Positions 1 through 61,956 of a DNA stretch of 64,000 nt are shown here, one piece after another. How positions within the stretch are numbered: the first letter of the stretch is position 1; the number at the start of each line of letters is the position of its first letter. The notes below the pieces were generated by a model. That model was not told the origin of the DNA and made no database searches. It saw nothing but the letters and a program-made list of their open reading frames with translations. The DNA comes from Escherichia coli (lineage in GTDB: Bacteria; Pseudomonadota; Gammaproteobacteria; Enterobacterales; Enterobacteriaceae): the NCBI RefSeq assembly GCF_045037415.1, contig NZ_CP173438.1; one strand, 5' to 3'. The translations under genes and the position numbers were made by a program.

Positions 1-1
1 A

Positions 2-316
2 GCGCTGGCCGGAGGCCCCATCGGTAAATTACGCACCGGGGATGTAATTGAAATTAAAATTGATTGTCGCGAGCTTCACGGCGAAGTCAATTTCCTCGGA
101 ACCCGTAGCGATGAACAATTACCTTCACAGGAGGAGGCAACTGCAATATTAAATGCCAGACCCAGCCATCAGGATTTACTTCCCGATCCTGAATTGCCAG
201 ATGATACCCAGCTATGGGCAATGCTTCAGGCCGTGAGTGGCGGGACATGGACCGGTTGTATTTATGATGTAAACAAAATTGGCGCGGCTTTGCGCGATTT
301 TATGAATAAAAACTGA
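2..316 (+). CDS. yjhG: Sugar-acid dehydratase (IlvD/EDD family, YjhG-like), C-terminal fragment; 5' end outside window
   Basis: Open frame from window edge to TGA at 314-316; tail ...GTWTGCIYDVNKIGAALRDFMNKN resembles YjhG/YagF C-terminus; sits upstream of yjhF as in K-12. Confidence 0.75.
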   Translation, partial: ALAGGPIGKLRTGDVIEIKIDCRELHGEVNFLGTRSDEQLPSQEEATAILNARPSHQDLLPDPELPDDTQLWAMLQAVSGGTWTGCIYDVNKIGAALRDFMNKN

Positions 317-422
317 AAGCATAAATAAAAACATCCAGACACCTGAATTATCCGACTCTGCATCATTCGTTATTTGCTCAGTCGGATAATGATGGGTCGC
401 TACCCTGTTATGAGAGGACGTT

Positions 423-1772
423 ATGCCACTAATTATCGTTGTGGCAGGGATTGCTTTACTCCTGCTTTTAACCATAAAAATTAAGCTTAATACGTTTGTT
501 TCGTTAATTATTGTCTCGATTGCTGTCGCCATCGCCAGTGGTATGGATTTGAGTAAAGTCGTCACCTCAGTCGAATCCGGGCTTGGCGGTACGCTGGGCC
601 ATATTGGTTTGATATTTGGCTTCGGTGTTATGCTCGGTCGCTTGCTGGCCGATGCGGGTGGTGCGCAGCGAATAGCGCTGACCATGCTGAATTATTTCGG
701 GAAAAATAAACTTGACTGGGCAGTGGTCTGTTCGGCGTTTATTGTCGGTATCGCACTTTTTTTCGAAGTCGGTTTAATTCTTCTGGTACCTATTTTATTC
801 GCTATTGCCCGTGAAGCAAAAATATCACCGATGTTTATGTGTGTGCCGATGCTTTCTGGTTTGCTGGTCGCACACGGTTTTTTGCCGCCGCACCCCGGCC
901 CGACTGTTATCGCCAGGGAATATGGCGCTGATGTAGGATTGGTACTGATATACGGTATCATTGTCGGCATTCCAACCTTTATTCTTTGCGGCCCGGTATT
1001 GAATAAATTCTGCCAGCGCATTATTCCGGACGCCTTTAAAAAAGAGGGGAATATAGCCTCTCTCGGCGCGACCCGCCGATTCAGCGAAAGCGAAATGCCA
1101 GGCTTTGGGATCAGTTTTCTCACGGCAATGCTGCCGGTGATCCTGATGGCGGTTGTCACCATCATCCAGATGACTCATGCCAAAAGTGCCGCGGATTCTG
1201 GCTTATTTTACAACGTGATACTGTTCTTAGGTAATTCGACGATCGCCATGCTGATTTCACTGCTGTTCGCGATCTATACCATGGGCCTGGGGCGCGGGAA
1301 AACAATCCCTGACCTGATGGATTCTTGCGGAAAAGCTATCGCGGGTATTGCCGGTCTGCTGCTGATTATCGGTGGTGGTGGTGCATTCAAGCAAGTTCTC
1401 ATCGACTCTGGCGTTGGTCAGTATATTTCCACCCTGGTTTCGGGTATGGATATTAACCCGATCTTGATGGCCTGGGGCGTGGCCGCATTCCTGCGTATTT
1501 GTCTGGGTTCAGCCACCGTCGCGGCGATCTCTACCGCCGGTCTGGTCATCCCATTGTTGGCAGTACATCCCAATACCAACCTGGCCTTGATTACGCTGGC
1601 TACCGGTGCCGGATCCTGTATTTGTTCTCACGTTAACGATGCCAGTTTCTGGATGATTAAAGACTTTTTTGGCCTGACCACCAAAGAAACGCTGTTATCC
1701 TGGACGTTGATGTCCACACTCTTATCCATCAGTGGGCTGATTTTTATTCTGCTCGCCAGCTTAGTTTTATAA
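423..1772 (+). CDS. yjhF: GntP-family gluconate/sugar-acid permease
   Basis: 449-aa polytopic membrane ORF with GntP-like composition; K-12 synteny yjhG-yjhF-yjhU. Confidence 0.85.
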
Positions 1773-2118
1773 TCGGGTTCTTGCCAGTGAGCCAACCTGT
1801 TGTTCACTGTCCCCCATAATTTAGTGAGTGACGGCAACCGTCTGCACGGTGACGAATCGCTGGCGATCAAAAAGGGGCGATATTGAACCGTCGATTATGC
1901 TTGATGGGTGTACTCTCAGTAATACTGTAAAGCCGGAGCATGTCTCCGACTTTACAGTATGGGGGAACAGCAGGCGATCGCTCAAATGGTATGCTGGTTT
2001 ATTTCATGTAAAAGAATAAAATATCTGTATAAAATCATGCCACTGGCAATCTGCATCAACTCTCCGGGTAAACAGGGTTAAGATGAGCATTTCCCCGGTT
2101 TAATACAGGTATACAAAA

Positions 2119-3105
2119 GTGGATAGAGATCAAACAAACAGCAGCCTGTTCAATGATGATCCCGTACTTCATGCAACATGGCTGTACTATCAGGAAGGCA
2201 AAAGCCAGACTGAAGTTGCAGCTATCATGGGGGTGTCCCGCGTCACGGTTGTCAAATACCTGCAAACAGCCCGGGAAAATGGACTGGTTCATATCAACCT
2301 GGATGTGAATGTCTTTGGCTCTATCGACGCTGCTTTGCAAATTCGCGATAAATTCAATCTCCAGAGAGTGATCATCGTGCCGGATGGCGAACATGCCGGA
2401 AAACGTGATGATACAAAGCTGATGCGGACTCGCCTTTCACGTGCCGGTGGCATGTATCTGAATCAGGTGATTGAGAATGGTGATGTGCTGGGGGTTGCCT
2501 GGGGAAGAACAATCCATCAGATGAGCAAAACCATGACGCCGAAGTCATGTAAAAATGTCACCGTTATACAGATGCTCGGTTCCATGCCATCTCAGCCAGA
2601 CCTGACGATCATTGAATCCTCATCGCAAATCGCCTACAAGCTTTCAGGCCGTGTCGCCTCGCTGCACGTGCCCGCCGTGGTATCAAGCGCCAGACTGGCC
2701 ATGGAGTTACAGGCAGAGCCTATTATTCGATCGAATTTTGACGTTCTGACTCGCTGTACGAAAGCCTTTTTTGTCGTGGGTAACGCGCTTGATGAAAATC
2801 CCCTGATTCGGGTGGGCGTGCTGAATAAGAAGGAAATGCAGACGTATCGGGATTTAGGCGCAGTAGGTGTCATTTGTGGTCGCTTCTATGACAAGGAAGG
2901 GATGCCCGTCGTGGCTGATGTTGACCAGCGTATTCTGGGAATCAGTCTGGCTCAGCTAAGGCAGATTGAACGGAAGATCTTCCTTGCTGGTGGGGAAAGA
3001 GGCTATGACGCAACGTTGGGTGCCCTGCTGGGAGGATATGTCACGGACCTGATTGTTGATGAAGGAACGGCAGAGTTTTTGCTGGCGTGTGAATTACCAC
3101 ACTAA
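2119..3105 (+). CDS. yjhU: SorC/DeoR-type sugar-binding transcriptional regulator (GTG start)
   Basis: 328-aa ORF with N-terminal HTH (SQTEVAAIMGVSRVTVVKYL) and SorC-like sugar-binding body; position matches K-12 yjhU. Confidence 0.8.
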   Translation: MDRDQTNSSLFNDDPVLHATWLYYQEGKSQTEVAAIMGVSRVTVVKYLQTARENGLVHINLDVNVFGSIDAALQIRDKFNLQRVIIVPDGEHAGKRDDTKLMRTRLSRAGGMYLNQVIENGDVLGVAWGRTIHQMSKTMTPKSCKNVTVIQMLGSMPSQPDLTIIESSSQIAYKLSGRVASLHVPAVVSSARLAMELQAEPIIRSNFDVLTRCTKAFFVVGNALDENPLIRVGVLNKKEMQTYRDLGAVGVICGRFYDKEGMPVVADVDQRILGISLAQLRQIERKIFLAGGERGYDATLGALLGGYVTDLIVDEGTAEFLLACELPH

Positions 3106-3117
3106 AAGAATGAACAA

Positions 3118-3150
3118 CTGCCCCATGTGGATATGGGGCAGGATTTTATT
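3118..3150. terminator. Putative bidirectional rho-independent terminator between convergent yjhU and transporter gene
   Basis: Inverted repeat TGCCCCATgtggatATGGGGCA followed by a T-rich tract. Confidence 0.5.
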
Positions 3151-4151
3151 GATTAGCGGCGATAATAAGAACAATACCCACAATGTATGAAATAAACATG
3201 GTCAGCAGCAGTTTATTGGTTCCGGCTGGCGCACTGGCAAATTCTCTCCAGATGAAGACTCCCCAGATCACGGCAATCATTGTGGCCCCCTGTCCCAGAC
3301 CGTAGGAAATGGCATACCCCGCCTGACCAGACGCAATCAGACTGAATGCCAGACCGACACACCAAATCATACCGCCCAGCCAGCCGCAAACATGATCCCG
3401 TAAGCTCCCGGAAAAATACATTTTCCCGTTGACCGGTTCTCCTGAAATAGGTTTTTTCATGACCAGCGTGTTAAGGACAAAGTTCGACAAGAACAGCCCC
3501 ACGGCAAACAGAACAAGTGCTGAGTAAGGCGTCATCAGACCGCTGGCAGGCTGGCTGAAATTGTCAGACATGGAGTCCGCCAAGAAGCGGAAAAACCATC
3601 CCATGATGATACCCGCCAGAATGGCAGTAATGAGAACCTTTATTACGGCGAGATTTATCCGCCTCCTGCGTGACACGACCATAGGCTATCGCGGTAAAAA
3701 TAATGGCGCTCACAACGCAGGCGACACCGAGGAACAGAATGAGCGGATCGCCCTGCGGATTGCCGATATAGGTGGTGATCACACCCAGAGCCAGTGCCAG
3801 CCCCACACCCACAGGAAAAGCTACCGCCATACCGGCAAGATTAATAGAAGCGACCAGAAGAATATTGGAAATATTGAAGATAATCCCTGCCAGTATTGCC
3901 GACATCAGACTACTGCTGCTCGCCTGCTGAATATCAGGTATAAAACTGCGACCGGCTTCGCCCATAGAACCCAGCGTGAAGGCAAATAACAAAGAACACA
4001 GCAATAATCCAATTGAATAATCCCAATAGAATAGAGGGAACTCCCATTTTTTATTGCTGACAAGTTTAGTTGTATTCGCCCATGAACCCCAGCAAATCAT
4101 GGTAATAAAACACATTATTATGGCGACAGCATACGATTCCACGATAAACAT
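3146..4151 (-). CDS. GRP/RbsU-type (DMT superfamily) sugar uptake protein, apparently frameshifted around 3645-3680
   Basis: Two overlapping minus-strand ORFs (3564-4151 and 3146-3682), both multi-TM, frames switching near a shared SRR(R) stretch. Confidence 0.55.
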
Positions 4152-4254
4152 AAATAACTCCTTGTGGTAGTTATAATCAATCGTTGTGGACAGAGGGAAT
4201 AGCAGCCATTCTGCGAATGGCTGTCATATGTTATTAATTAAAATAAAGCTGTAA

Positions 4255-4896
4255 TTACGCTTTCAAACCATACGTTTTGAATTTTTCAAGGACGATGGTC
4301 ATTTCGGCTTCAGACAGCACGGGAACATCGTGATGTAATCCGCCACATTTGATGTATAAATCAGCCAGCGTCTCGGTTTCACCCGCCAGCCACAACGTCT
4401 TTTCCAGCGTGACGTCCATGGCCAGCATACCGTGGTGCTGCATCAGCAAGGACTTACTTTCTCTGATTCCTTTAGATACACCGTCGGCCAGTTCAGGACT
4501 GCCAAAGGTATAATAGGGAATACAGGGAATATGATCCGTCCCCGATACCGCCACCATATAATGAATGGCCGGAATTGAATGATTATGTATTGCCACCGCC
4601 GTGGAATTCACCGCATGCGTATGTATGACAGCATTCAATTCTGGTCTGGCTTTATAACACGCCAGATGAAATAACCATTCACTTGATGGTATTTTACCCG
4701 CTTCAGGTATTCCCTTATCGTCTACAAAGACAATCATGTCCGGCGTCATCTTTGAATAAGCGATCCCACTCGGCGTAATCAACATGCCACCGGTATACCT
4801 GGCACTCACATTACCTGATGTTCCTTGATTAAGACCTGACGCATTCATTTCCCGACAAGTGGAAATGATTTTTTCTGCTAACTTAATCCGTTCCAT
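4255..4896 (-). CDS. Class II aldolase/adducin-family protein (DHAP-shunt type aldolase)
   Basis: 213-aa ORF with class II aldolase signatures (GTSGNVSAR, metal-binding His cluster HTHAVNSTAVAIH); immediately downstream of mtnA. Confidence 0.8.
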   Translation of the reverse strand: MERIKLAEKIISTCREMNASGLNQGTSGNVSARYTGGMLITPSGIAYSKMTPDMIVFVDDKGIPEAGKIPSSEWLFHLACYKARPELNAVIHTHAVNSTAVAIHNHSIPAIHYMVAVSGTDHIPCIPYYTFGSPELADGVSKGIRESKSLLMQHHGMLAMDVTLEKTLWLAGETETLADLYIKCGGLHHDVPVLSEAEMTIVLEKFKTYGLKA

Positions 4897-4926
4897 TCCT
4901 GATCCTTAATAGCAATGGCCGCCGTT

Positions 4927-6042
4927 TTAATGCTGTTCCCCCTGGAGTGCTTTACTCTTCAGGTCAGCAAACATATCCGCCAGCGCTGACTTACTGGCAG
5001 CACAGACTCCCCGCTCAGTAATGAAGCCGGTAATGTATCGGGCAGGCGTGACGTCGAAAGCGTAGTTCCCACAACGGGTTCCTTCAGGGGCGGTATTGAC
5101 CCAGCTCAATTCTCCCTGAGGGTTTATCCCATAGACATGGGACTGCTCTTTTCCGTCACGTTGCTCAATCGGAATGCTTTTTCCGTCCTCGATAGTCCAG
5201 TCAATAGTGGGAGAAGGTAACGCGACGTAGAAGGGAACATGGTTATCATGGGCCGCCAGCGCCTTAAGATAGGTACCAATTTTATTACAGACATCCCCTC
5301 TGGCCGTGGTTCGATCGGTCCCAACAATGCAGAGATCAACGTCACCGTGTTGCATCAGGTGGCCACCCGCGTTGTCGGCGATCAGGGTGTGAGGAATACC
5401 GTGTGAGCCCAGTTCAAATGCCGTGAGTCCGCCCTGATTACGTGGCCGCGTTTCATCCACCCAGACGTGAACAGGGATTCCGTTTTCATGCGCTTTGTAG
5501 ATGGGAGAAAGCGCGGTTCCCCAGTCTACAGTCGCCAGCCAGCCTGCGTTACAATGTGTCAGGATATTGACCACACTCCCGGCCGGTTTTTTCTGGGCTA
5601 TTTCGCGGATGACTTCTGTACCATGTAATCCAATTTGTTCACACAACGCGACATCTTCCTCGGCAATTTCTGCCGCCAGCGCCCAGGCCACATCCTTGCG
5701 CTCTGATACACAGAGATCCTTCAGTGTGTCTATCATCCTGTCGAGGGCCCATTTGAGATTAATTGCCGTTGGTCGGGTTTTGATAAGAAGGTCATAGTAA
5801 CGCTGCAGACCCATGTCACTGGCATCGTGATTCATTCCCAGCGCGATGCCATAGGCTGCAACGACACCAATAAGCGGAGCGCCACGAACCCACATCTCCT
5901 GAATAGCCGTAGCGGCCATTTCCGCAGAGGTAAGCGCCACCACCTCGAACTTAAAAGGCAACTTAGTCTGATCGATGATTTCTACCGCTTTTCCATCCCC
6001 GGAAACCCAGACCGTACGATAGTGTTTACCTTTAATATTCAT
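4927..6042 (-). CDS. mtnA: S-methyl-5-thioribose-1-phosphate isomerase (eIF-2B alpha/beta/delta family)
   Basis: 371-aa ORF; N-terminus ...[19 protein letters not shown] and ...[20 protein letters not shown] typical of MtnA. Confidence 0.85.
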
Positions 6043-6051
6043 AATGACCTC

Positions 6052-7311
6052 TTACTTAACCTTCGCAGACTGGATGACGGAATCCATATTTTTAAACTGG
6101 CGGGCATTGACGATAAGATCGCGCGCCATGGTCAATGCACGTCGTTCACATCCTGCGCGAAGCTCTGTATTTTCAATCTGTTTCAGCTCGGCAACGCCAG
6201 CAAAACCAATGATCCGGCGATTCATTTCCATGCCGGCATTCACCAGGGAATCTTCAAGCAGCGTGGCAAAAAACTGATCCTGTGCGTCCTCAAGAGCGGC
6301 CCTGTTCTGTTGATACATTTCTGTCGGCCACGCGTCGCCCTGTGTTTTGTTGTCCCAGAGCTGGCGGAACTCCCGGGTGAAAACGGACCAGGTTTGGACA
6401 ATCTGCTGAAGCAGCCATTCCTGATAGTCAGCGCGACGTTGCTCATTCGCATCCCACCCAGGGCGTGAGAAGTACGCCAGCAGGAGGTTGCCAATATAGT
6501 TGCCGATATCAAACGCCATTGGCCCCATGAAACCGAACTCCGGATCAATCACTTTGGTATCCGTGTCGGTCACCATGATTGAGCCTGAATGAAGGTCGCC
6601 ATGTAACAATGCCTGCGCTTCTGTCATAAATTTGTACTTATAACGCATGGCAACCTGGATCATCTCTACATCAGCCCAGGCCTTATGGACGGCATCGTCC
6701 AGCTCAGGAGAAGTCCAGTTATTCCGTTCAGCGTTGTAATAGGGCTCTGTGAAGATCAGATCTTCCGTAATTTTGCACAGCTCATGATTCAACGCGAACT
6801 CGGCAGTAAGCGCTTTTTTCTGTTCTGCTGACATGCCAATGTCAGACGTATTGAAGAGAGTCTGTGCTAAAAATCTGCCGATATCTTCAGCTAGTTTAGG
6901 GAATTTTTTACCGTTAATCAGTTCCTTACGCAGAATCACGTGAGGAGTCAGATACTCCATGGCAAACAGCGCCATTTCCGGGTCGTAAAAATAGACCTGC
7001 GGAATCAGTGTGTGACCCGCGTACTTGGCTTCCTGACATAAGACGTTGTACTCAAAGCCCGCACGGCTCAGAGATAAAGGCCATCCTTCGCCCCCTGCAC
7101 GAAGCCAGGGCAGAGCTTGTTTTACAATGATGGTTTTATGTGTCCCCTCAACGATAAACACCATGTTCAGGTTTCCGTCCCCCACTTCTGAAACTTTCCA
7201 CTCTTCAGGTAACCCTCCCGGTTCGCATGAAGGGGTCAGTCTGGACGAGAGATAACCCGGCAGCGTGTCACATGTCAGCGGCTTGTAACCTGATGGAATT
7301 GAATCCGTCAT
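6052..7311 (-). CDS. mtnK: 5-methylthioribose kinase
   Basis: 419-aa ORF with aminoglycoside-phosphotransferase-like kinase fold motifs (HGDLHSGSIMV, DPEFGFMGP); 10-bp gap to mtnA. Confidence 0.85.
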   Translation of the reverse strand: MTDSIPSGYKPLTCDTLPGYLSSRLTPSCEPGGLPEEWKVSEVGDGNLNMVFIVEGTHKTIIVKQALPWLRAGGEGWPLSLSRAGFEYNVLCQEAKYAGHTLIPQVYFYDPEMALFAMEYLTPHVILRKELINGKKFPKLAEDIGRFLAQTLFNTSDIGMSAEQKKALTAEFALNHELCKITEDLIFTEPYYNAERNNWTSPELDDAVHKAWADVEMIQVAMRYKYKFMTEAQALLHGDLHSGSIMVTDTDTKVIDPEFGFMGPMAFDIGNYIGNLLLAYFSRPGWDANEQRRADYQEWLLQQIVQTWSVFTREFRQLWDNKTQGDAWPTEMYQQNRAALEDAQDQFFATLLEDSLVNAGMEMNRRIIGFAGVAELKQIENTELRAGCERRALTMARDLIVNARQFKNMDSVIQSAKVK

Positions 7312-7926
7312 AACAGTTCTCCTTGTCTACACAGAATGATAATCAACTTGTCATGTGACAACTATACATTATCAAATGTAAAATTATTTGTGACACATGT
7401 AGATTTTTTGAACTGTATAATATTAAAAATGATGTCGTATGGAGTCATGATCTTTACAGGAATCAGCAGAGGAAAACATCTATTATTACCATGTAATTCA
7501 TGTTGTTATGTCGCAACAATAGTACTGCACGGGGAATTATTACGGGCAAACTTAGGCGAAAGGAAGTACTGAAGTGACAGAATAAATCACACTTTTTGTA
7601 CATATGTACTTTTCTATTGTCTTTTGTTGTGGAAACAAATAGTGTTTGTCATGCCGATGCTAATAGACAGATAGATTCGAGGGCCAACAGCCCCATCATC
7701 ATGATGGAGCAACAGAGGTGAGTCTAACGTTTCCGCACTTCTTATCGATCGGCACTAACGATCAATATCGATAAACTGATCTATCAAAACGATTATCTTT
7801 CTTGCAACCTGCCTGGTTATCCTTCTCTTACATTGCTCGCAGAAAAGCCCTTTTATTACGGTTAGTTATCTAGCTGAGACTTGCTACGCCCATTTTCCAT
7901 GTACCCCAAATCACGAGGTCACAAAG

Positions 7927-8104
7927 GCGCGGAAAGATGAAGAGATGTGCACGTTGCAACAAAAAAAGAAGCGTCCTTGAACAGAGGCTCTCACTCGATA
8001 AAGAATTCTGCGACGAGTGCTTATTCGATATCGATGAGGAAATCAGGGAAAGAAGGATTATCACGATCAGACGCCTCAAAGATGACAACGAAAGAAAATC
8101 GTAG
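7927..8104 (+). CDS. Hypothetical small zinc-ribbon protein (56 aa, CxxC...CxxC)
   Basis: ATG at 7927, ORF MKRCARCNKK...FCDECLFD... to TAG at 8102-8104; below the 60-aa ORF-track cutoff; weak RBS. Confidence 0.2.
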
Positions 8105-8110
8105 CTCAAT

Positions 8111-8857
8111 ATGAAAAATGGAATCGATGTCAGCGTCATTATCCCTGCTTACAACGCCGCTGAAACCAGCGTTAGTTTGGTTACTAAAATCCTCAGTGAA
8201 CCCCACTTGGCTATTGAACTTATCATTGTCGATGACGGTTCTACTGATGAAACTGGCAACGTTCTTCGTCAAATCCACGATGATCGGCTCATTCTCATTG
8301 AGCAGGCCAATCAAGGTGTCTATGCCGCCCGAAATGCTGCTCTAGCCTTGCACCAAGGAGAATAGGTTATATTCCTTGATGCGGACGACGATATAGCAGA
8401 TGGGTTCATAGAAAAAAGATGGCAGGCAGTTAGTACGTCGCAAGCCGACGTCATGATCTTTAATGGCTGGCATTCCTGTGCTGACCAACATCGAAGAGCG
8501 GTTCACAAAAAGCAGCCCTATGGTACGCCTCTGTCAGGTTATTAATGGATTAGACACTGTGTTACACACCGCGAATGGCCGCATTATCTGTGGCTGCAGA
8601 TGGTCAGGCCATCCTATGTCAGGCAGCATTCACTGCGCTTCCAGTCCGGCAGGAGCCATAAAGACATTTTTTAAACGGTTCATCTTGCAGCGAGCAATGG
8701 TTGATTCTGTACATTGGATATAAAGGACTATATCTATATCAACAATAAGGCCTCTATCACACATCGGCCGGATTACTACGTTGTTCGTGCTATAAACTAT
8801 GTTGAAGTGATCGCGAAAATCATCCAAGTAGCGGAACAAGAACAAAACAAAAAATAA
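8111..8857 (+). pseudogene. Family 2 glycosyltransferase, degraded by frameshifts and stops
   Basis: Intact N-terminus VSVIIPAYNAA...IIVDDGSTDET, then DxD motif (FLDADDD) and later segments only in other frames. Confidence 0.5.
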
Positions 8858-9468
8858 AGGTATTTTTGTACCGGCATGCGCTGGTAGAGGCACGTCATTT
8901 TTTGGGACTCTACCGCAATCGCGTTGGGGATAAATCGGGCATGAAGGACTGCTTCAAAGCGAACATATTCGCAGCCCATTTATTCAGAGGTATCAGCAGT
9001 TTTAGCGATGTGTTTTTCTTTATTAAGCTGCTGGGCAAGCTATTCTGATAAGTTGTGCGTTGCTACACGACACCAGCGCACAGCTTAATTTCACGCTTTC
9101 TGACTAAATTGTTCAGGCCTTTTCTATAGGTGCAAACACAACTCCCCGTACTTTCCTCTTCCAACTCAAAATCATCGCACCTTGCTGACCCAAGAAGGGA
9201 GCATACCCTGCACTAGTATCCGCACAGCTAATACTCTATTGATACCAACAACGCTTCAGCACAACAAAGTAACTCGATAATCACAACTCAAAGTGAAGAT
9301 GCCAAAAACTCGTTTGAGAGCAATAAATTCAATAACATGAAAAAAATGTATTTTGCATTGAAAATCTTACTTATTGCGCTTGGCTACAATTGCATGCTTG
9401 GTAATATAGATTATAAAACACCAGACTAGCTGCCTGGTAAGTAATGTAATAGCAGAGGAAATATCACG

Positions 9469-11544
9469 ATGGATCTTGTAGATAGTGTCGAAGCAGGTAA
9501 GCTGACGATCAGTGAATTGATTGATGCCCTGGCGAAAGATAAAAATTACTCAGCTTCCAAGTGGGATCAGCGATACCGTGAATTTACGACCTTGCTACAA
9601 CAAACCTCAACTTTTTCTGAACCTGAAACGGATGGTTTAGTCAAGAGGCTCTGGTATGAACGCGATAACGGTATTGCCAGTATTCGCCAGGGCGTTCCAT
9701 CCTTAGCAGAATATCAGCAAAGCCTGCCACTGCTTAGAGAACTAACTGAACGAATTCGGCAACAGCCGGATGAAGAAACTTACCAATATGTTGGCAATGC
9801 ACTACAACAAGCTAAAGAAAACGGACTTCTCAAGCGTATGTATAGGAGTTTGAGAAATCGCGTCTTTGCCGCGTTCTCGCCAGAAAACTACACCAGTACT
9901 GTGGATGAGAATGCTTTTAGTAAAGCAGCAGAATTCCTAAATCAGCACTTCCATCTCGGTCTGGCACTGACCGGAAATTGGTTACAGAAAAACTATGAAT
10001 TGAAACAAGCCATACACGCCCAATCTCCTGACACAGATCCTTATTACGTGAATATGGCCATCTGGCATCTCTATGAATTGCTCCGTGAACGCGATAATGA
10101 ACAAAAGCAGGAGAAAATAGCGAGCACTACATTCATAACCAGCAATGAGCCCATCGAGAACAAGATCATCCTACATTCACCAACTAACGTGATCTTCTTT
10201 GGCCCCCCTGGCACTGGCAAAACCTTCAGGTTGCAGCAAAAAATGAAAGAGTACACTTCTCATGCTGTTCCAGCTGATCGTGATGCCTGGCTGGATTCTC
10301 GCCTTGAATCGTTGAATTGGATGCAGGTTATAACGCTGGTGCTGCTCGATCTTGGGAAACGAGCCAAAGTTCGCCAAATTATTGAACATATGTGGTTTCA
10401 ACGTAAGGCATTATTAAACGGTCGTAATGGCAACCTATCGAATACAGCCTGGGCAGCTTTGCAATCCTATACAGTTCCCGAGTCGTTAACCGTTGATTAT
10501 AAGAATCGGCGTGAGCCTGCCGTATTTAACAAAACAGATAACAGCGAATGGTTGCTAGTTGATTCACAGCTCGAGCAAGTGGAGGATTTGGTAGAGCTCT
10601 ACGCCGAACTTAAACGAGGCCCTAAATCTGCCGAAGCCATCCAGCGTTTTGCGGTGGTTACGTTCCACCAATCTTACGGCTATGAAGAATTTATTGAAGG
10701 TATACGCGCTCGCTCTGACGAGAGTGGCAATATCTCTTATCCCATTGAGCCGGGTATCTTTATGCGCCTTTCCCAACGTGCCAATGCCGATCCAGGACAT
10801 CGCTACGCCATTTTCATTGATGAGATCAATCGCGGTAACATATCCAAGATCTTTGGTGAACTAATCTCACTCATTGAAGTAGACAAGCGTGCAGGCATGC
10901 CCAATGCAATGAGCCTACAACTGGCTTATAGCGGTGATCACTTCAGCGTACCCGCCAATGTCGATATCATCGGAGCCATGAATACAGCGGACCGTTCTTT
11001 AGCTCTGATGGACACGGCTTTGCGCCGTCGCTTTGACTTTGTCGAAATGATGCCCGATCTCTCTTTACTGAGTGGAGCTAAGGTGAAAGGCATAGAGCTC
11101 GAGTCGTTGTTAGAGAAACTCAATAGCCGCATCGAGGCTCTTTACGATCGTGAACATACGCTGGGGCATGCGTTCTTTATGCCGGTAAAAAATGCACTCG
11201 ATGCCGGTGATGAAGAAGCTGCGTTTAAACAATTGAAGATCGCATTCCAGAAAAAGATCATTCCGCTTTTACAGGAATACTTTTTCGATGACTGGAACAA
11301 GATCCGGTTGGTGCTGGCAGACAATCAAAAGCAAGACGACAACCTGCAATTCGTGATTGAGAAAACCGACGATCTCGATACGCTTTTTGGTAACAACCAT
11401 GGTTTACGACACCATGATCAGCAATCAACAGCTTACGAACTCAAAGATTTCGATCAAGAGATCTGGAATATTCCACAGGCTTATCGTTCAATTTATCAGC
11501 CCCAGCAGACTCCCCTTGATGAGCAGGCTGTAAATCATGGGTGA
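9469..11544 (+). CDS. McrB-family AAA+ GTPase (type IV restriction subunit) with non-canonical ~230-aa N-terminal domain
   Basis: Walker A FFGPPGTGKTF; McrB signature FHQSYGYEEFIEG; Walker B FIDEINRGNISKIFGE; MNTADRSLA...ALRRRF. Confidence 0.85.
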   Translation: MDLVDSVEAGKLTISELIDALAKDKNYSASKWDQRYREFTTLLQQTSTFSEPETDGLVKRLWYERDNGIASIRQGVPSLAEYQQSLPLLRELTERIRQQPDEETYQYVGNALQQAKENGLLKRMYRSLRNRVFAAFSPENYTSTVDENAFSKAAEFLNQHFHLGLALTGNWLQKNYELKQAIHAQSPDTDPYYVNMAIWHLYELLRERDNEQKQEKIASTTFITSNEPIENKIILHSPTNVIFFGPPGTGKTFRLQQKMKEYTSHAVPADRDAWLDSRLESLNWMQVITLVLLDLGKRAKVRQIIEHMWFQRKALLNGRNGNLSNTAWAALQSYTVPESLTVDYKNRREPAVFNKTDNSEWLLVDSQLEQVEDLVELYAELKRGPKSAEAIQRFAVVTFHQSYGYEEFIEGIRARSDESGNISYPIEPGIFMRLSQRANADPGHRYAIFIDEINRGNISKIFGELISLIEVDKRAGMPNAMSLQLAYSGDHFSVPANVDIIGAMNTADRSLALMDTALRRRFDFVEMMPDLSLLSGAKVKGIELESLLEKLNSRIEALYDREHTLGHAFFMPVKNALDAGDEEAAFKQLKIAFQKKIIPLLQEYFFDDWNKIRLVLADNQKQDDNLQFVIEKTDDLDTLFGNNHGLRHHDQQSTAYELKDFDQEIWNIPQAYRSIYQPQQTPLDEQAVNHG

Positions 11545-12823: not shown

Positions 12824-13547
12824 ATTTCTAGCCAAGCTGGCGATGAACCAGTCCTCTAAAAAATGGGTATAATCATAGTTTATTTACTAATTAAATTAAT
12901 ATAAAGTAATTACTTTATTATATGGAGAATTTATGAAAATGGGAAAAATTGCAGTTACTCCTAATAATGATAAAGCAGCCAGCCACTCTAAAGATGAAAA
13001 TTTAGCCACAAATACAATTAAGAAAAACGTAAAACCTAAATATGGCGATGCGGCATTTTTAGAGTACACTCGACTAATAGTTAACCACCCGAATTATTTT
13101 GGAATGCCAGATCCCTTTGGGGAAAAAGGTGAGATTCAATGGGAAGCTCCATCAAATAGGGCATCGGGGAAATTTAAACACACTCATCAACGGCGCTATG
13201 AATGGTGGAAAAATAAAGCCAGAAGTATTGGGATAGACCCTGACACTGAAAAAGCATGGATTAGTAAAACAGCTAAACTAATTCATCCACTTGGAGTTAA
13301 ACCATGCAAGAAATGCGGTAAAGAAATGGAATTATCTTACTCCTACCCAAATGAGCATTTCTTTTCTCGGGTTAGGAAACTTAATTATATAGATGAGACT
13401 TTTGAGCTATCTCAAAATGAACACATAGTTGATTTGTTGACTCGTTTAGATGATAGATTTGGTGAAAGAATATATTTAGATTTACCACATTTATTTTCTA
13501 CAAAATCCATCACGATTTGAAGTGGTCAACAAAAACTGGCCACCGAG

Positions 13548-14695
<1,148 letters not shown>

Positions 14696-15928
14696 TATGG
14701 CACCTGTGTTGTTCTGAGGTGAGCATATCACCTCTGTTCAGGTGGCCAAATTCAGTAAACCACTTCAATTCCAGATATTTCAAGCAATCTCGAAGCATGG
14801 ATTGAGTATCTAAAAGAACAATACATACCTCAAGAATCACGTATGCTTAGCCCTGGAGCCATGGCAAATCCTCCAGATCGTTTTGATGGATTTCATTCAT
14901 TTAACCGCTGTTGTCGCTCTATTGCTGATAAAGGAAGGACCAAAGAAAATCTTAAATCTTATGTTACTGACAGAAGAGTTTTCGAATATTGGGTGGATGG
15001 TGATTGGGTAGCTGCAGACAGGCTAATGGGCCAAGTTAGAACAAATAATATATTTATTAACGAGGAATGTTTGAATGCCGGAAATGGTGGTTTACATCCA
15101 ACTCCTTGCCAAGCAGATCACATTGGCCCAATCTCACTAGGGTTTTCCCATCGCCCACAATTTCAACTACTTTGCAAATCATGTAATAGTGCCAAAAACA
15201 ATCGTATGTATTTAAGTGATATAATCTCTTTATTAGAAGCTGAGAATGAAGGTCATACGGTTATTTCATGGTTCGCAGAAGAAGTATGGAATCGACTAAA
15301 ACACTCTGTAGATGATAGTGAAAAAGCCTTAAGACTAAGTAAAATACTACGTGATAATAGACATACATATATGAATCTTCTTAAAAAAATAATGGATGAA
15401 GGTTATTATACTTTCCTTGCAAGTCTTTTACATCTTGAGGTAGCCAATTATAACCCAATATTTGAGGGATTATGCATTTCAAATCATTTAACTCATTATA
15501 AATCATTAAAAAAAATAAAACGTGAATCAAAATATGCTGCTGTGCAAAAAACAAGACGAATCAGAATAGCATTTACTTCATTGAATGATTATCATAGAAA
15601 AGAAAATCGGAACGCATTTATTGTATCAAATGAATTATCTGAGAAGTTTTTCTCTGAAGCTATGGATAATTTAAAATCATTAAGTGAAATTACATCTTGC
15701 TTAGATGAAAAAATATCCGGAATAATATCTGAGAATTCAGATTCAAAAAATGAATTTCGAACAATCATTACAGATCTACGAGAAATAGTGACAAACAATA
15801 AAGAAAAATTCAACTTGATATTAAAATATCTAATATCAGGGATGAGCGAAATAGGAAAAGAACTGGAATCATATTGGGAAAATGATCGTTATGTTCGCTC
15901 AATCCCAGAAGAATTTATAGAGTAAGAC

Positions 15929-15952
15929 ATAGCCCTCTTATAAAGAGGGTTT
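15929..15952. terminator. Possible bidirectional terminator hairpin between convergent REase and MTase genes
   Basis: CCCTCTTtataAAGAGGG hairpin followed by TTTTAT; overlaps the C5-MTase stop. Confidence 0.3.
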
Positions 15953-17128
15953 TATATTCCTTTCATAATATTCTGAAGGAGTAATATTACCTCTCATGAA
16001 TAATTGATAGTCATTTTCGGGGTGATGGATATAATATTTACCACTTCCATCTTCACCATGTTGCAAAGGAGGCAGATCAGATAATGCATCCTTTACAGAT
16101 ACCCAAGATTCCTTATCTTCTGTTAATTTTTGTGGAGGTTCAATTGAAAATAAAGGGTCGTTTGAACCAACCAATATAACCCTTTTTCGGCGCTGAGGGA
16201 TTGCATAATGTTCAGAGTTTAATATCCATCCATTCATAGTTTTCATGGTTGATGAGAATTCTTCTTTGACTCTTTCAAAGACCTTACCTTTTTCCATATT
16301 CAACAAACCAGCAACATTTTCAAAAATAAAACCGTTTGGTTTTATCTCATTTAAGAGAGATTTATAATGCATAAAAAGTGAATTTCTTGGATCATCCATT
16401 GTTCTGGCATTTCCTGCCGTAGAAAATCCCTGGCATGGGGGTCCACCAAGTATCCATAATTGTTTATCAAAATATAATTTCTTAAATCCTGATATTTTAT
16501 CTGCTATTTTTGAAAAAGTTTCATTATCAGAAATGCTGCCACATAAAACTTCTTTGTGAACATTGTTTGAATATGTTTGTAGATATTTTTCTTCAATATC
16601 ATTCGCCAATAATGGAGTCCATCCAGCCCATTTGAATCCTAGTCCCAGCCCTCCAGCTCCGGAAAATAAATCGATATAATAACCAGTATTACCTATCGCC
16701 TTCTCTATTTCTTTCGCAATCAGAAAAGCTAAAAATGGGGGCACTGCATTACCGATTTGGGTATTAATTGCTGTTTGACCTCCGAAGAAAATAAAATCAT
16801 CCGGGAACGATTGTAGTCTTGCAGCTTCTCTCTGGGATAGAACACGATCTTGCTCATAGTGAATATGGCAACCATTCCCAGGTCGGTTAAAATATGTATT
16901 GATAGTATATGCAGGCATATCTGGAAGTAATCTACCGTAGTATGTTGAACGGCTTCCTTTTCCTTGTGCATAACTATCCCTAATTTGCTCTATTCTTTTA
17001 GACGGTACATCTAAAGGAATATTTTTCCAGTTGCCACCTGGCGGTACTGAGTTAACAATCATCATATCCAATTCACTTAGCTTTGCTGCCTTGTGATTGG
17101 GAATCATAAATGTTTCACTTTTAGTCAT
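15938..17128 (-). CDS. DNA (cytosine-5)-methyltransferase, circularly permuted motif order
   Basis: Motifs IX/X (RLQSFPDDFIF, QIGNAVPP) precede motif I (DLFSGAGGLGLGF), IV (GGPPCQGFSTAGN), VI (FIFENVAGLL), VIII (QRRKRVILVG). Confidence 0.85.
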   Translation of the reverse strand: MTKSETFMIPNHKAAKLSELDMMIVNSVPPGGNWKNIPLDVPSKRIEQIRDSYAQGKGSRSTYYGRLLPDMPAYTINTYFNRPGNGCHIHYEQDRVLSQREAARLQSFPDDFIFFGGQTAINTQIGNAVPPFLAFLIAKEIEKAIGNTGYYIDLFSGAGGLGLGFKWAGWTPLLANDIEEKYLQTYSNNVHKEVLCGSISDNETFSKIADKISGFKKLYFDKQLWILGGPPCQGFSTAGNARTMDDPRNSLFMHYKSLLNEIKPNGFIFENVAGLLNMEKGKVFERVKEEFSSTMKTMNGWILNSEHYAIPQRRKRVILVGSNDPLFSIEPPQKLTEDKESWVSVKDALSDLPPLQHGEDGSGKYYIHHPENDYQLFMRGNITPSEYYERNIKPSL

Positions 17129-18761
17129 AATGTTGAAAAATCCTCAATAAACTTTCTTTTTCAGCTAACTCAATCTTATCAAATGAAGACAGAAGCTTAT
17201 TAAATTCATTCAAATCCAATTTGTAAATATTTTTGGCAACATAAGCCTCAATTTTCAACTCAGCATCACAACATCCCTCTATGCAAGAAATCACAAGTTG
17301 TTTTAATTCAGAATGTTGTAATAATATTTTTTCAGACGGTATTGCAGTTTTTCGTAAGGCTGACAATGATACATGACCAGTAGCTAAAAAGCTTCTTAAT
17401 TGAAATTCAAAACAAAGGGAGTTTATAATACCAAGCAAACTAAAGAGCGAATCTTGCGAACCACTTTTATAATAGACCACCCCTAATGAATTCCCTGCCA
17501 AAGAGTTAGGAGGTATTATCGTTGCAATCATTCGCCTTTTTTGACTCGGGCGTGAAATGTCACGCCATGCAATCCTTACGAAATTAGAATTGGATAGAAC
17601 CTTATCAATTTTTTTCGTTATTCTTAAGCTCTTCTCATTATGAAAATTATACCTCCCAATCATTTTTCCTTTAATGAATAATAATCCGCCGCCACTTTTT
17701 TGTGTCCAGTCACTACTACCAGTTTCATCTATTTCTCTTCCTGCCCATATCTCTCCATTTTTTTCCAGACTACCCCATGTTGGGTATCCCTCTTGCAGCT
17801 TTCTTAACAAATGAACGGCATGAACACCTTGAGATACCGGAATGCTAAGATATTGAGAATCTATACTAGACAAATCAAAAAAACCTAGTGATTTAATATT
17901 TAAGTTTTTATCATACACACTAAGTTGAATATTATCATTAAGGGATTCACCTTTATTAAAAATAAAAGAACATGAAGAAACATCAGCACCGCCGAATAAT
18001 TTAGCCTCAGCTGGATAATAATTTATGCAATCAATCCTCCCTGAATTAAAAAACTTTTCACGTAATATGTACGATTGTTCATCTGCGAAAAAAGATGCAG
18101 GCATAACTATAGCTACCAATCCATTTTTATTACATATTTCTAAGCTAAGTTCTGCACCAACACGTGAAAGATTAGTCCCCCACCCAGCAAATTTACGCTT
18201 CGGCTGAGAATATGGCAATACTCTTGACAAATAATCATCAAACTCACGAAGAGAGTCTATATACATCGATTTCATAGATGGTTCAAAAAAATCGAGCTCT
18301 CTAGAATCTGGTTTTATATTCTCCCAAGGCGGATTGGTTATAACACAATCAAAATAATCAACATATTTTTTAAATTCATAAAAAACATCACTATTTTTTA
18401 TAGTAATGTTAATATTTGCACCTGCTAACTTAAGTTCAGACAACGCATTTTTAGCATAAGTGAGGCCTGTATTTTCTATATCGAACAGATAAACATTCCA
18501 CTCTACATCTGGAAAACCATTTATCATCCATTGTTTAATAAGCAATGTAATAAGTCGACCATCCCCTGAAAATGGATCTGCGACATTATAACTTTTTTTA
18601 TCACAGGAATTTATCAATGGTAATAACTTCTCTATCATCAAAAGAGCTATTTTTGGATCTGTATAGTATTTACCTGTCGCTTTTTTAGTGAATTTTGTTG
18701 TCTCGTCCAAGGACAGTGAATTAATTAAATGGATATGTTTCATGTAAAATATCTCTTCCAT
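17121..18761 (-). CDS. N6-adenine DNA methyltransferase
   Basis: Motif I VADPFSGDGRLI and motif IV VITNPPWE; stop overlaps the start of the downstream C5-MTase by 8 bp (operon). Confidence 0.8.
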   Translation of the reverse strand: MEEIFYMKHIHLINSLSLDETTKFTKKATGKYYTDPKIALLMIEKLLPLINSCDKKSYNVADPFSGDGRLITLLIKQWMINGFPDVEWNVYLFDIENTGLTYAKNALSELKLAGANINITIKNSDVFYEFKKYVDYFDCVITNPPWENIKPDSRELDFFEPSMKSMYIDSLREFDDYLSRVLPYSQPKRKFAGWGTNLSRVGAELSLEICNKNGLVAIVMPASFFADEQSYILREKFFNSGRIDCINYYPAEAKLFGGADVSSCSFIFNKGESLNDNIQLSVYDKNLNIKSLGFFDLSSIDSQYLSIPVSQGVHAVHLLRKLQEGYPTWGSLEKNGEIWAGREIDETGSSDWTQKSGGGLLFIKGKMIGRYNFHNEKSLRITKKIDKVLSNSNFVRIAWRDISRPSQKRRMIATIIPPNSLAGNSLGVVYYKSGSQDSLFSLLGIINSLCFEFQLRSFLATGHVSLSALRKTAIPSEKILLQHSELKQLVISCIEGCCDAELKIEAYVAKNIYKLDLNEFNKLLSSFDKIELAEKESLLRIFQHYD

Positions 18762-42415: not shown

Positions 42416-42572
42416 TCACAGATAAAACACTCTCCAGGAAACCCGGGGCGGTTCACTTAGCCGCGTGTCCATTATTGCTGGATAAGATCACACTTTAAAA
42501 TGCCCTATATAGGGTTAACCAGTAATTATCTGTATGATAGCTTTGAGTTCGGGAGGAGGTAATGACTCCAAC

Positions 42573-42968
42573 TTACTGATAGTGTTTTATGTTCAGATAA
42601 TGCCCGATGACCTTGTCATGCAGCTCCACCGATTTTGAGAACGACAGTAACTTCCGTCCCAGCCTTGCCAGATGTTGTCTCAGATTCAGATTATGTCGCT
42701 CAATGCGCTGAGTGTAACGCTTGCTGATAACGTGCAGCTTTCTCTTCAGGCGTGATTCATACAGCGGCCAGCCATCCGTCATCTATACCACGACCTCAAA
42801 GGCCGACAGCAGGCTCAGAAGACGCTCCAGTGTGGCCAGAGTGCGTTCACCGAAGACGTGCGCCACAACCGTCCTCCGTATCCTGTCATACGCGTAAAAC
42901 AGCCAGCGCTGACGTGATTTAGCACCGACGTAGCCCCACTGTTCGTCCATTTCAGCGCAGACAATCAC
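42573..42968 (-). pseudogene. insB: IS1 insB with internal nonsense codon (TAG at 42783-42785)
   Basis: Reads ...[20 protein letters not shown]...; canonical IS1 has W at the stop position. Confidence 0.6.
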
Positions 42969-42994
42969 ATCACTGCCCGGTTGTATGCGCGAGG

Positions 42995-43270
42995 TTACCG
43001 ACTACGGCCTGAGTTTTTTAAGTGACGTAAAACCATGTTGAGGCCAACGCCCATAATGCGTGCACTGGCGCGACATCCGACGCCATTCATGGCCATATCA
43101 ATGATTTTCTGGTGCGTACCGGGCTGAGAGGCGGTGTAAGTGAACTGTAGTTGCCATGTTTTACGGCAATGAGAGCAGAGATAGCGCTGATGTCCGGCAG
43201 TGCTTTTGCCGTTACGCACCACGCCTTCAGTAGCGGAGCAGGAAGGACATCTGATGGAAATGGAAGCCAC
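42995..43270 (-). CDS. insA: IS1 InsA
   Basis: 91 aa [42 protein letters not shown]... Confidence 0.9.
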
Positions 43271-43498
43271 GCAAGCACCTTAAAATCACCATCATACACT
43301 AAATCAGTAAGTTGGCAGCATTACCGAAATCCCCATCCTTTAGGGCAGTGAGGATGTCAATAATAGCAGACCACATCATGAGTCATTCTGACCGACACAT
43401 GCCAGAAGCAGAGGCTCCATCCCATTTTATACCTACCTTATAACACTTAGAAAAACAACATGTTAAAAATGTCTATTGGAAACAATTTTATTTCCAAT

Positions 43499-59920: not shown

Positions 59921-60703
59921 TCATTCGTCTTCTGAATCAGGTGTAATGATCTTTACAGAACCATTCTGGCAGTGCGTAACATAATCTGCCGGTAACGGAC
60001 GATCGCTAATCAGAACGTCAAATGCAGAGATCGGTGCGAGGCTGGCAGAGGCCACTTCATCGAACAACGCGTGGCGGGCGAGCAAAATTTTCCGTAGTCC
60101 ACGGTTCATCGCTTTACGCTTAGTGGCAAGATCTTCAGGGTTAAACCAGCTGACGCCAAAGTGATTATGCACACCGCTGGCGGAAATAAATATTTTTCGC
60201 GGATTGAGAGAGTCTAATGGCGAAGAGTTACTGGCATCGTAAAAAGCATCACTTCTGGCACGATACGTACCACCACAAAGTATTGCTGTTACATTAGGCT
60301 TTTCATTCAACGCAACAAAGACGCGATGTGAGTAACAGATGCCGGTGAAGGTGATTGCATCCGGAATCATGCTTATAACGAGTGGTATCTCCTGGCCATT
60401 ATCAAAGAAGATCAGATCATTTTCATTAACCATTCCGGCAGCCAGAATTGCAATAGGTAAGTCATCACGATGATTTTTTGGAACGTCATGGATTACTGGC
60501 ATGGATGGCGCGGGTTTATTCACCATTACAATATAGCCACCCAGTAGGGTCAGTGGCAGAGGTTCATCTTCCTGATGGAGATCGCGACGAATAGTCATTA
60601 CAGAAACTTCCAGCATTCGCGCTGCGTCTTTCAAATGGATTCTGTCGGTTTTCTTAAGCAGTTCCATCAAACGTCGGATACGCTCTTTTTGCTTCGTTTC
60701 CAT
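59921..60703 (-). CDS. deoQ: DeoR-family transcriptional regulator (deoxyribose operon repressor type)
   Basis: 260 aa; N-terminal HTH (IHLKDAARMLEVSVMTIRRDL); divergent from the deoK-deoP genes. Confidence 0.7.
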   Translation of the reverse strand: METKQKERIRRLMELLKKTDRIHLKDAARMLEVSVMTIRRDLHQEDEPLPLTLLGGYIVMVNKPAPSMPVIHDVPKNHRDDLPIAILAAGMVNENDLIFFDNGQEIPLVISMIPDAITFTGICYSHRVFVALNEKPNVTAILCGGTYRARSDAFYDASNSSPLDSLNPRKIFISASGVHNHFGVSWFNPEDLATKRKAMNRGLRKILLARHALFDEVASASLAPISAFDVLISDRPLPADYVTHCQNGSVKIITPDSEDE

Positions 60704-61929: not shown

Positions 61930-61956
61930 TCATCCTGCACAGTTAAAGGTAGCACT

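Follow-up and report, generated by a model that had tools for sequence, protein, structure and literature searches.

The region at 3146-7311 on the minus strand of the analysed stretch of Escherichia coli DNA (64,000 nucleotides, hereafter the window) is almost certainly mtnK-mtnA-ald2-permease, the DHAP-shunt operon of E. coli that published experimental work has characterised, accompanied by its convergent repressor gene mtnR (yjhU). The operon enables some strains to use as growth substrates the 5-deoxyribose-type compounds left over from S-adenosylmethionine. Its reference version is that of E. coli ATCC 25922 (Huening 2024, PMC10986504; Huening 2025, PMC12632272), and the primary enzymology is that of North 2020 (Mol Microbiol 113:923) in the form in which it is restated in Huening 2024 (PMC10986504). 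The system present here is already known, regulators included, and its sole departure is a broken permease gene. An earlier note on this DNA had described a contiguous minus-strand cluster of genes for a kinase, an isomerase, a class II aldolase and a sugar porter, and its start and end coordinates agree exactly with the list of open reading frames. The features of the region are:

2119-3105, plus strand: yjhU = mtnR, convergent SorC-family repressor (PF04198)
3118-3141, both strands: G+C-rich hairpin, terminator-like, between the convergent yjhU and permease genes (consensus match only)
3146-4151, minus strand: GRP/DMT-type permease gene, frameshifted pseudogene (single-base insertion relative to Nissle 1917 and ATCC 25922)
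4255-4896, minus strand: ald2, FucA-like class II aldolase, published as 5-(methylthio)ribulose-1-P / 5-deoxyribulose-1-P aldolase (213 aa, intact; PRK08087)
4927-6042, minus strand: mtnA, 5-methylthioribose-1-P / 5-deoxyribose-1-P isomerase (371 aa, intact; TIGR00512)
6052-7311, minus strand: mtnK (419 aa; TIGR01767)
7312-7437, minus strand: P1 promoter region, CRP-activated and MtnR-repressed (published lacZ fusions; DNA identical to ATCC 25922)
7438-8110, minus strand: rest of the conserved 799-bp intergenic region, which holds the weak constitutive P2

Identity of the locus

Comparison with the published locus of extraintestinal pathogenic E. coli (ExPEC), which the earlier note had proposed as a check, showed that positions 1-10036 of the window align to ATCC 25922 with 99.98% identity. 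The differences are one SNP at position 1961, upstream of yjhU, and one inserted base (a gap in the alignment) in the permease gene, which is the only difference over positions 1962-10036. The MtnK, MtnA, Ald2 and YjhU proteins are 100% identical to their ATCC 25922 counterparts (WP_000132325.1, which is the kinetically characterised kinase, WP_001022015.1, WP_000439686.1 and WP_000373366.1, respectively), and the lambda-Red homology arms used for deletion of mtnK-mtnA-ald2 in ATCC 25922 have exact matches in the window (7282-7321 and 4245-4284). The flanks are also common to both strains: yjhF-yjhU on one side and, on the other, 799 bp of intergenic DNA that separate mtnK from the WP_000788354 ORF (8111-8365), this ORF and McrBC. 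What had been put forward as a likeness to the ExPEC DHAP shunt is thus the ATCC 25922 operon itself, with the same locus, flanks, promoter region and four proteins; the permease gene is intact in ATCC 25922, while in the window it is a pseudogene by one extra base. A further difference is the position of ISEc52, which lies in a gene for an Alw26I-type restriction endonuclease in the window and in mcrB in ATCC 25922.

The strain is ST131-like, and the locus forms the end of its leuX/KpLE2 island that carries yjhU. Since no tRNA gene was found in the 64-kb window, the attribution to the leuX island draws on published work and on the collinearity of the region with K-12. Strain 447 is collinear with the window and was aligned with it as far as position 51250; over this stretch the only difference is one IS insertion. 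Among 5426 complete E. coli genomes, 1076 contain the three-enzyme block with at least 80% coverage, and in almost all of these the identity is at least 99%.

Enzymes and pathway

The assignments of the kinase, the isomerase and the class II aldolase were upheld by NCBIfam models, all with scores over the cut-offs: MtnK scored 522 bits with TIGR01767 (cut-off 275), MtnA, whose gene is separated from mtnK by 9 bp, scored 410 bits with TIGR00512 (cut-off 279), and Ald2 scored 364 bits with the L-fuculose-phosphate aldolase subfamily PRK08087 (cut-off 264). Ald2 aligns with K-12 FucA without gaps at 58.5% identity and keeps its Zn ligands H92/H94/H155, as well as E73, Y113, F131 and Y209. The two aldolases are alike in fold, length, Zn and catalytic residues and carry out analogous cleavage to DHAP and an aldehyde; they differ in their partners, MtnK and MtnA for Ald2, FucI and FucK for FucA, and in their published substrates. 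Ald2 resembles E. coli FucA (E = 1e-80) far more than PDB 6BTD (E = 6e-33), which is deposited only as 'Fuculose phosphate aldolase' and is presumably the aldolase of B. thuringiensis.

The proposed course of the pathway is taken from experiments on the identical proteins of ATCC 25922. Pfs, a housekeeping nucleosidase, would release 5-deoxyribose and 5-methylthioribose from 5'-deoxyadenosine and 5'-methylthioadenosine, respectively. MtnK would phosphorylate these sugars at C1, MtnA would isomerise the 1-phosphates to ribulose-1-phosphates, and the Zn-dependent class II Ald2 would cleave the latter to DHAP and acetaldehyde or 2-methylthioacetaldehyde. As DHAP enters central metabolism, the shunt compounds would supply carbon and energy during respiratory growth. 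A Pfs/MtnN nucleosidase gene was not found in the 64-kb window; pfs is a conserved gene throughout E. coli and is sited elsewhere in the genome (Huening, PMC10986504/PMC12632272). Given that the three enzymes, the regulator and the promoter region are intact, the catabolic core in the window should, judged from its DNA, be functional.

The checks suggested in the earlier note, such as growth on 5-deoxyribose, have already been carried out in ATCC 25922. Deletion of mtnK-mtnA-ald2 in ATCC 25922 abolishes growth on 5-deoxyribose, these three genes alone enable K-12 to grow on it, and kcat/KM of MtnK has been measured for both 5-deoxyribose (5dR) and 5-methylthioribose (MTR) (Huening, PMC10986504/PMC12632272). 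The module had been named a salvage module. The kinase-isomerase-aldolase route to DHAP holds, but methionine or sulfur salvage does not, as in E. coli this is a CRP-controlled carbon-source pathway for catabolism of 5-deoxyribose, 5'-deoxyadenosine and MTA, and serves neither sulfur/methionine salvage nor detoxification (Huening, PMC10986504/PMC12632272). The DHAP shunt of Rhodospirillum rubrum and Rhodopseudomonas palustris, which is the MtnP variant, and the route for 5-deoxyribose disposal in B. thuringiensis (DrdK/DrdI/DrdA) share this chemistry, in which 5-deoxypentose-1-P is isomerised to ribulose-1-P and a class II aldolase then splits the latter into DHAP and an aldehyde. Those systems, however, function in sulfur salvage or detoxification (Huening, PMC10986504/PMC12632272). 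With the DHAP shunt, ExPEC lineages such as ST131 gain 5'-deoxynucleosides as carbon sources, and these compounds are reported in urine and blood (Huening, PMC10986504/PMC12632272).

Two other readings of the enzyme genes have to be weighed. One is a truncated methionine salvage pathway in which MtnK and MtnA supply an MtnB-like dehydratase with substrate and the sulfur returns to methionine. The first two enzymes are indeed common to the operon and to universal methionine salvage (MtnK/MtnA/MtnB/MtnC or MtnW-X/MtnD/MtnE), and Ald2 has the class II aldolase/adducin fold of MtnB and a weak match to its model. This match (64.5 bits) is far below the MtnB cut-off of 137, so Ald2 is not MtnB; its score is far over the cut-off of the FucA subfamily and the FucA active site is kept. 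The third enzyme is therefore an aldolase, and the operon is without genes for the dehydratase, enolase-phosphatase, dioxygenase and transaminase of universal salvage. In agreement with the earlier note, no mtnB, mtnC, mtnD or mtnE is annotated in the collinear strain 447 over the stretch that matches the window. In ATCC 25922, with identical proteins, MTA sulfur accumulates as 2-methylthioethanol with no significant recycling to methionine (Huening, PMC10986504/PMC12632272), and we consider this reading extremely improbable. The other reading, a paralogous module for L-fucose or another 6-deoxyhexose, with the aldolase as a second FucA and the 'mtn' names as annotation artefacts, is suggested by the RefSeq name of the Ald2 protein ('L-fuculose-phosphate aldolase') and by its identity to K-12 FucA. 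It deserves equally little credence: MtnK and MtnA reach roughly 1.5-2 times the cut-offs of their equivalog models, while Ald2 fails the strict FucA equivalog TIGR01086 (318 bits, cut-off 400). Moreover, mtnK-mtnA-ald2 are necessary and sufficient for growth on 5-deoxyribose and induction by 5dR of approximately 7.5 log2-fold also speaks against a fucose module (Huening, PMC10986504/PMC12632272).

The permease gene

The fourth gene, taken in the earlier note for a sugar porter, proved to encode a permease of GRP/DMT type, not one of the MFS family, and to be a frameshifted pseudogene in the window. It is seen as two overlapping ORFs on the minus strand (3564-4151 and 3146-3682), because one additional base at 3635/3636 puts the reading frame out and truncates the product after residue 172 of 334; the break falls in the central loop that hydropathy predicts between TM5 and TM6. 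The alignment with Nissle 1917 and ATCC 25922 shows one inserted base in this gene. The window permease gave weak RhaT/GlcU-type matches with NCBIfam models, and the intact allele has Pfam matches to Ureide_permease (PF07168) and Sugar_transport (PF06800); the RefSeq name is GRP family sugar transporter, with the label 'frameshifted' in strains identical to the window over 3000-7600. The frameshift allele is rare (10 of 1237 genomes); strains 98215, 447, 439, 463 and A1.S1.126 are among its carriers. An assembly error is conceivable, yet the allele is common to 10 complete-genome assemblies, including isolates from Egypt and Taiwan; the lengths of the fec gene ORFs in the window, which are those of intact genes, also speak against such an error.

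Two further possibilities were considered for the broken gene and rejected. The half-ORFs as a split 5+5 TM transporter would require the C-terminal one to start from an internal ATG (3682) that lacks a Shine-Dalgarno sequence, and AGGAGG is not followed by any in-frame start codon. Phase variation is rejected because the frameshift site (GGTCTC to GGTTCTC) is not a homopolymer tract.

In ST131 strain 751 an independent event, insertion of ISEc23, has broken the permease gene, and at least seven further genomes have the same 7140-bp split match with ISEc23 listed beneath it. An 80-nt probe of the ISEc23 insertion site had coverage below 80% in six genomes, against eight ISEc23-bearing matches listed; the probe count is therefore unreliable and no total is given.

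An intact fourth gene, transcribed together with the enzyme genes, belongs to the E. coli-type DHAP-shunt operon and is not found in the window. As the permease is not needed in the K-12 complementation, what is missing is an accessory part, and the enzymatic core is unaffected. With the putative dedicated permease inactivated, uptake would have to use another route, and growth of K-12 with only mtnK-mtnA-ald2 on 5-deoxyribose shows the existence of such a route. Decay of the whole operon in this lineage, which the frameshift would have begun and which would leave the module physiologically silent, could be proposed from the frameshift itself, the ISEc23 insertion in strain 751, the partial operons elsewhere (some match to the three-enzyme block in 1232 genomes, compared with 1076 at coverage of at least 80%) and the loss of the operon from K-12 through an IS1-associated deletion. 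We regard it as unlikely, since no damage is seen in the three enzyme genes, in mtnR or in the 799-bp control region, the inserted base is all that distinguishes 1962-10036 from a functional locus, and the transporter is unnecessary for K-12 growth on 5dR (Huening, PMC10986504/PMC12632272). The characterised DHAP-shunt operon with a broken permease gene is thus the reading that we retain, and no observation speaks against it. The biology of the pathway is already published and the window adds none of that kind; its additions are small and for operon specialists, and among them is a natural permease-null allele in clinical isolates, which offers a ready test of the importance of the permease.

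Regulator and promoter region

The earlier note had placed the cluster as island cargo next to yjhU. [quoted passage not shown] Pfam identified a PF04198 sugar-binding domain in YjhU (1.1e-79, residues 64-323) and HTH matches at residues 20-57, and this combination of an N-terminal HTH and PF04198 is that of the SorC family. The best NCBIfam matches, Bacillus-type DeoR and LsrR, were both under their equivalog cut-offs. MtnR can accordingly be likened to sugar-phosphate-responsive repressors of the SorC family of the B. subtilis DeoR, CggR and LsrR type.

The lacZ fusions placed promoter P1 66-126 bp upstream of mtnK; cAMP-CRP activates it, MtnR represses it as long as no shunt substrate is available, and expression with 5dR rises by the above-mentioned factor (Huening, PMC10986504/PMC12632272). 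The published P1 start '72 bp upstream of mtnK' corresponds to window position 7383 (Huening, PMC10986504/PMC12632272), and no acceptable -10 hexamer is present in the sequence at the proper distance from it. A candidate P1 promoter, GTGTCA-17-GATAAT (7396-7368), predicts a start near 7361, and with such a start a CRP-like 22-mer centred at 7396.5 would sit at -35.5, as published. An alternative candidate -10 element is TATAGT (7366-7361), in which the TAT..T positions are invariant in four genera. The Shine-Dalgarno sequence lies at 7318-7324. For P2, the distance is inconsistent within the publication, 188 bp and 218 bp (Huening, PMC10986504/PMC12632272).

The core of P1 is kept across genera at approximately 7347-7413 (four-taxon footprint), while the arms of the published CAAAT...ATTTG semi-palindrome (7373-7390) are not conserved outside E. 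coli. From this pattern of conservation, the MtnR operator more likely lies in the cross-genus core, for example at the palindrome TTGTCA-CA-TGACAA (7347-7360), than in the published CAAAT...ATTTG.

Inheritance of the module

The five-gene module, regulator included, is also found in Providencia and Klebsiella, and the Providencia orthologue of YjhU is 89% identical and has the same position. A SorC-family repressor that moves with its operon across genera bears on the search for the effector and the operator of MtnR. K-12 has lost 39 kb, with the operon in it, by a deletion whose IS1-adjacent scar ends inside the permease gene, of which the last 58 bp are left; yjhU of K-12 is therefore an orphan.

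On balance, we lean towards a joint reading in which the five genes are inherited as a unit, K-12 yjhU is a remnant of the deletion, the permease is dispensable or under relaxed selection and the MtnR operator is situated in the cross-genus core. According to this reading, the K-12 ancestor carried the DHAP shunt, and mtnR in strains without the shunt would reflect linkage and deletion history and not an independent conserved function. Independent hits on the permease gene in ST131-like genomes, by the frameshift and by ISEc23, would then point to a permease that is dispensable or under relaxed selection, with 5-deoxypentoses entering by another carrier. That K-12 lost the operon but kept mtnR, through a deletion next to IS1, is a small addition to what is known of this locus; among the 5426 genomes, yjhU is present in 1601, the permease segment in approximately 1237 and the K-12-type junction in 383.

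Identity of the operon

The minus-strand cluster mtnK-mtnA-ald2-permease (3146-7311, named in the order of transcription) is the published dihydroxyacetone phosphate (DHAP) shunt system of E. coli ATCC 25922 (North 2020; Huening 2024, PMC10986504; Huening 2025, PMC12632272), which is known in detail. The earlier note, which had read it as an ExPEC DHAP-shunt locus, was right but not new, and our additions are minor: a strain-specific permease frameshift, a K-12 deletion scar, a cross-genus five-gene module and the assignment of the regulator to the SorC family. The genes are:

6052-7311, minus strand: mtnK, 419 aa, NCBIfam MtnK equivalog (522 bits, cut-off 275)
4927-6042, minus strand: mtnA, 371 aa, NCBIfam MtnA equivalog (410 bits, cut-off 279)
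4255-4896, minus strand: ald2 aldolase, 213 aa, NCBIfam L-fuculose-phosphate aldolase subfamily (364 bits, cut-off 264)
3564-4151 and 3146-3682, minus strand: permease gene, two overlapping ORFs in the ORF listing

Comparison with the published ExPEC locus, which the note had proposed as a check, shows that window positions 1-10036 differ from the ATCC 25922 RefSeq sequence only by one SNP (1961) and one inserted base (3635). The lambda-Red homology arms used for the ATCC 25922 mtnK-mtnA-ald2 deletion match the window at 7282-7321 and 4245-4284 with zero mismatches, and the MtnK, MtnA, Ald2 and YjhU proteins are identical in both. Since the 799-bp intergenic region upstream of mtnK (7312-8110) is also identical, published ATCC 25922 results can be transferred directly to the window. 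The SNP, the only substitution across the first 10 kb (G in the window, A in ATCC 25922), falls between yjhF and yjhU, 158 bp ahead of the yjhU start codon. At the distal end of the 799-bp region lies an 84-aa ORF (8111-8365) whose match to family 2 glycosyltransferase models is confined to their first ~85 residues (N-terminal end); it looks like a gene remnant. The Nissle 1917 assembly (NZ_CP022686.1; locus L002, 6147-10311) also contains the complete cluster; none of its genes is flagged as a pseudogene, and its proteins have the RefSeq accessions that are used for ATCC 25922.

The ORF and family calls confirm the coordinates and gene identities of the earlier note, including that the aldolase is not MtnB: ald2 reaches 64.5 bits with the NCBIfam MtnB dehydratase model, against a cut-off of 137. 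Its claim that mtnB, mtnC, mtnD and mtnE are missing also holds, in that none is annotated in strain 447 over the stretch matching the window (aligned up to position 51250, with one IS insertion as the sole structural difference).

Pathway and aldolase

It is known that ATCC 25922 without mtnK-mtnA-ald2 loses growth on 5-deoxyribose (5dR), 5'-deoxyadenosine and 5'-methylthioadenosine and that complementation rescues it, while the shunt in E. coli neither recycles sulfur to methionine nor is needed for detoxification. Each step is documented in the literature for identical proteins, and the strain of the window would be expected to follow it: Pfs, encoded elsewhere in the genome, frees 5dR or 5-methylthioribose (MTR), MtnK, which prefers 5dR about ten-fold over MTR, converts it to the 1-phosphate, MtnA to the ribulose-1-phosphate, and Ald2 cleaves this to DHAP and an aldehyde (acetaldehyde or 2-methylthioacetaldehyde). 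The alignment of Ald2 with K-12 FucA is gapless (58.5% identity). Ald2 retains the three Zn-binding histidines (H92, H94, H155), catalytic E73, and also Y113, F131 and Y209, which fits FucA-type Zn-enolate aldol chemistry on a shorter substrate.

Regulator and promoter region

According to published data the four genes form one operon: 5dR induces it about 7.5 log2-fold, YjhU (since renamed MtnR) represses it and CRP activates it. The earlier note placed the cluster next to yjhU (2119-3105, plus strand, convergent); the adjacency stands, but the gene is the published repressor rather than a mere neighbor. Because it carries the PF04198 sugar-binding domain, MtnR belongs to the SorC family, alongside B. 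subtilis DeoR, CggR and LsrR. E. coli DeoR, GlpR and FucR, despite the common name, belong to a different family (HTH_DeoR/DeoRC). It is to these three that the published discussion likens MtnR. Alignment of mtnK upstream regions from four taxa revealed a conserved core at ~7347-7413 with the following elements:

7397-7400: invariant ACAT
7389-7393: invariant TCACA
7361-7366: invariant TAT..T within TATAGT
7347-7360: partly invariant perfect 6-2-6 palindrome TTGTCA-CA-TGACAA

In the same alignment neither arm of CAAAT...ATTTG (7373-7390), the candidate MtnR site from the literature, is conserved outside E. coli. The published TSS position did not fit the sequence of this region.

Permease

The earlier note called the transporter a sugar porter, but it is not an MFS protein: Pfam (PF07168/PF06800) and the RefSeq name place it in the GRP/DMT type with ten helices. 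Homologues of at most 72% identity, from Aeromonas and metagenomic contigs, adjoin PfkB ribokinase-like genes, which fits a pentose-type importer recruited into the operon. On the coding strand, GGTCTC of Nissle 1917 and ATCC 25922 is GGTTCTC in the window (extra base at 3635/3636). The reading frame is lost beyond residue 172 of 334, a point that hydropathy assigns to the central loop, between hydrophobic segments five and six. For strains with exactly the window sequence over 3000-7600, RefSeq labels the permease "frameshifted", and the allele is rare (10 of the 1237 genomes with the permease segment). In ST131 strain 751 (locus L005, 647-4191) ISEc23, an IS66-family element of ~2.5 kb, is inserted independently at the equivalent of ~3486-3493, so the permease was inactivated at least twice; among the matches listed, seven further genomes show a 7140-bp split match like that of strain 751, again with ISEc23 annotated there. 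The frameshift likely lowers or changes uptake rather than abolishing the pathway, since K-12 supplied with mtnK-mtnA-ald2 alone grows on 5dR. In strain 447 fecI, fecA and fecD are flagged as frameshifted while the window ORFs there are full-length (fecI 173 aa, fecA 774 aa); indel errors are thus possible in that assembly and single-assembly frameshift calls need caution.

Distribution and probable deletion in K-12

Among 5426 complete E. coli genomes, yjhU was found in 1601, the permease segment in 1237-1238 and the three-enzyme block (at least 80% coverage) in 1076. In K-12 MG1655 (locus L004, 13473-14339) IS1F abuts window position 3203, its IS1 copy lies beside ykiE-fecI in the same place as the window IS1 (42558-43325), and the collinear comparison shows that window 3204-42557 (39.35 kb) is absent, while yjhU and the final 58 bp of the permease gene are kept. 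This looks like the signature of an IS1-adjacent deletion, which would have taken the operon, the McrBC genes, an Alw26I-type RM system and a CP4-like remnant. The K-12-type junction is present in 383 of the 5426 genomes, near the number with yjhU and without the permease segment. Furthermore, the same five genes, the convergent PF04198 regulator included, keep their order and orientation in Providencia rettgeri, Klebsiella oxytoca and one further contig, with amino-acid identities in Providencia of 78% (MtnK), 82% (MtnA), 80% (Ald2), 85% (permease) and 89% (regulator). The published view is that mtnR was retained for other targets; junction counts, K-12 scar and cross-genus module together suggest, as an alternative, that mtnR and the operon move as a unit and that yjhU copies lacking the operon are deletion relics.

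Strain type and other island cargo

A 1250-bp IS3-family element (ISEc52/IS911-like, 13518-14767, within 12933-15925) with a 3-bp target duplication splits an Alw26I/Eco31I/Esp3I-family restriction endonuclease gene of the window, whereas in ATCC 25922 an identical copy is situated in mcrB. ORFs at the two adjoining methyltransferase gene positions (15938-18761) are uninterrupted and approximately full length. The window appears to be ST131-like, because this junction is common to it and 17 genomes, several of them labelled O25b:H4-ST131. Three genes cluster at 59921-63273, for a regulator similar to DeoR, a kinase of the ribokinase family and a FucP-like permease, and in strain 447 an aldose 1-epimerase is annotated beside the equivalent cluster. 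This composition is like that of deoQKPX, a locus for 2-deoxyribose utilisation in pathogenic E. coli; if the cluster is such a locus, one island would carry both 2-deoxyribose and 5-deoxyribose modules.
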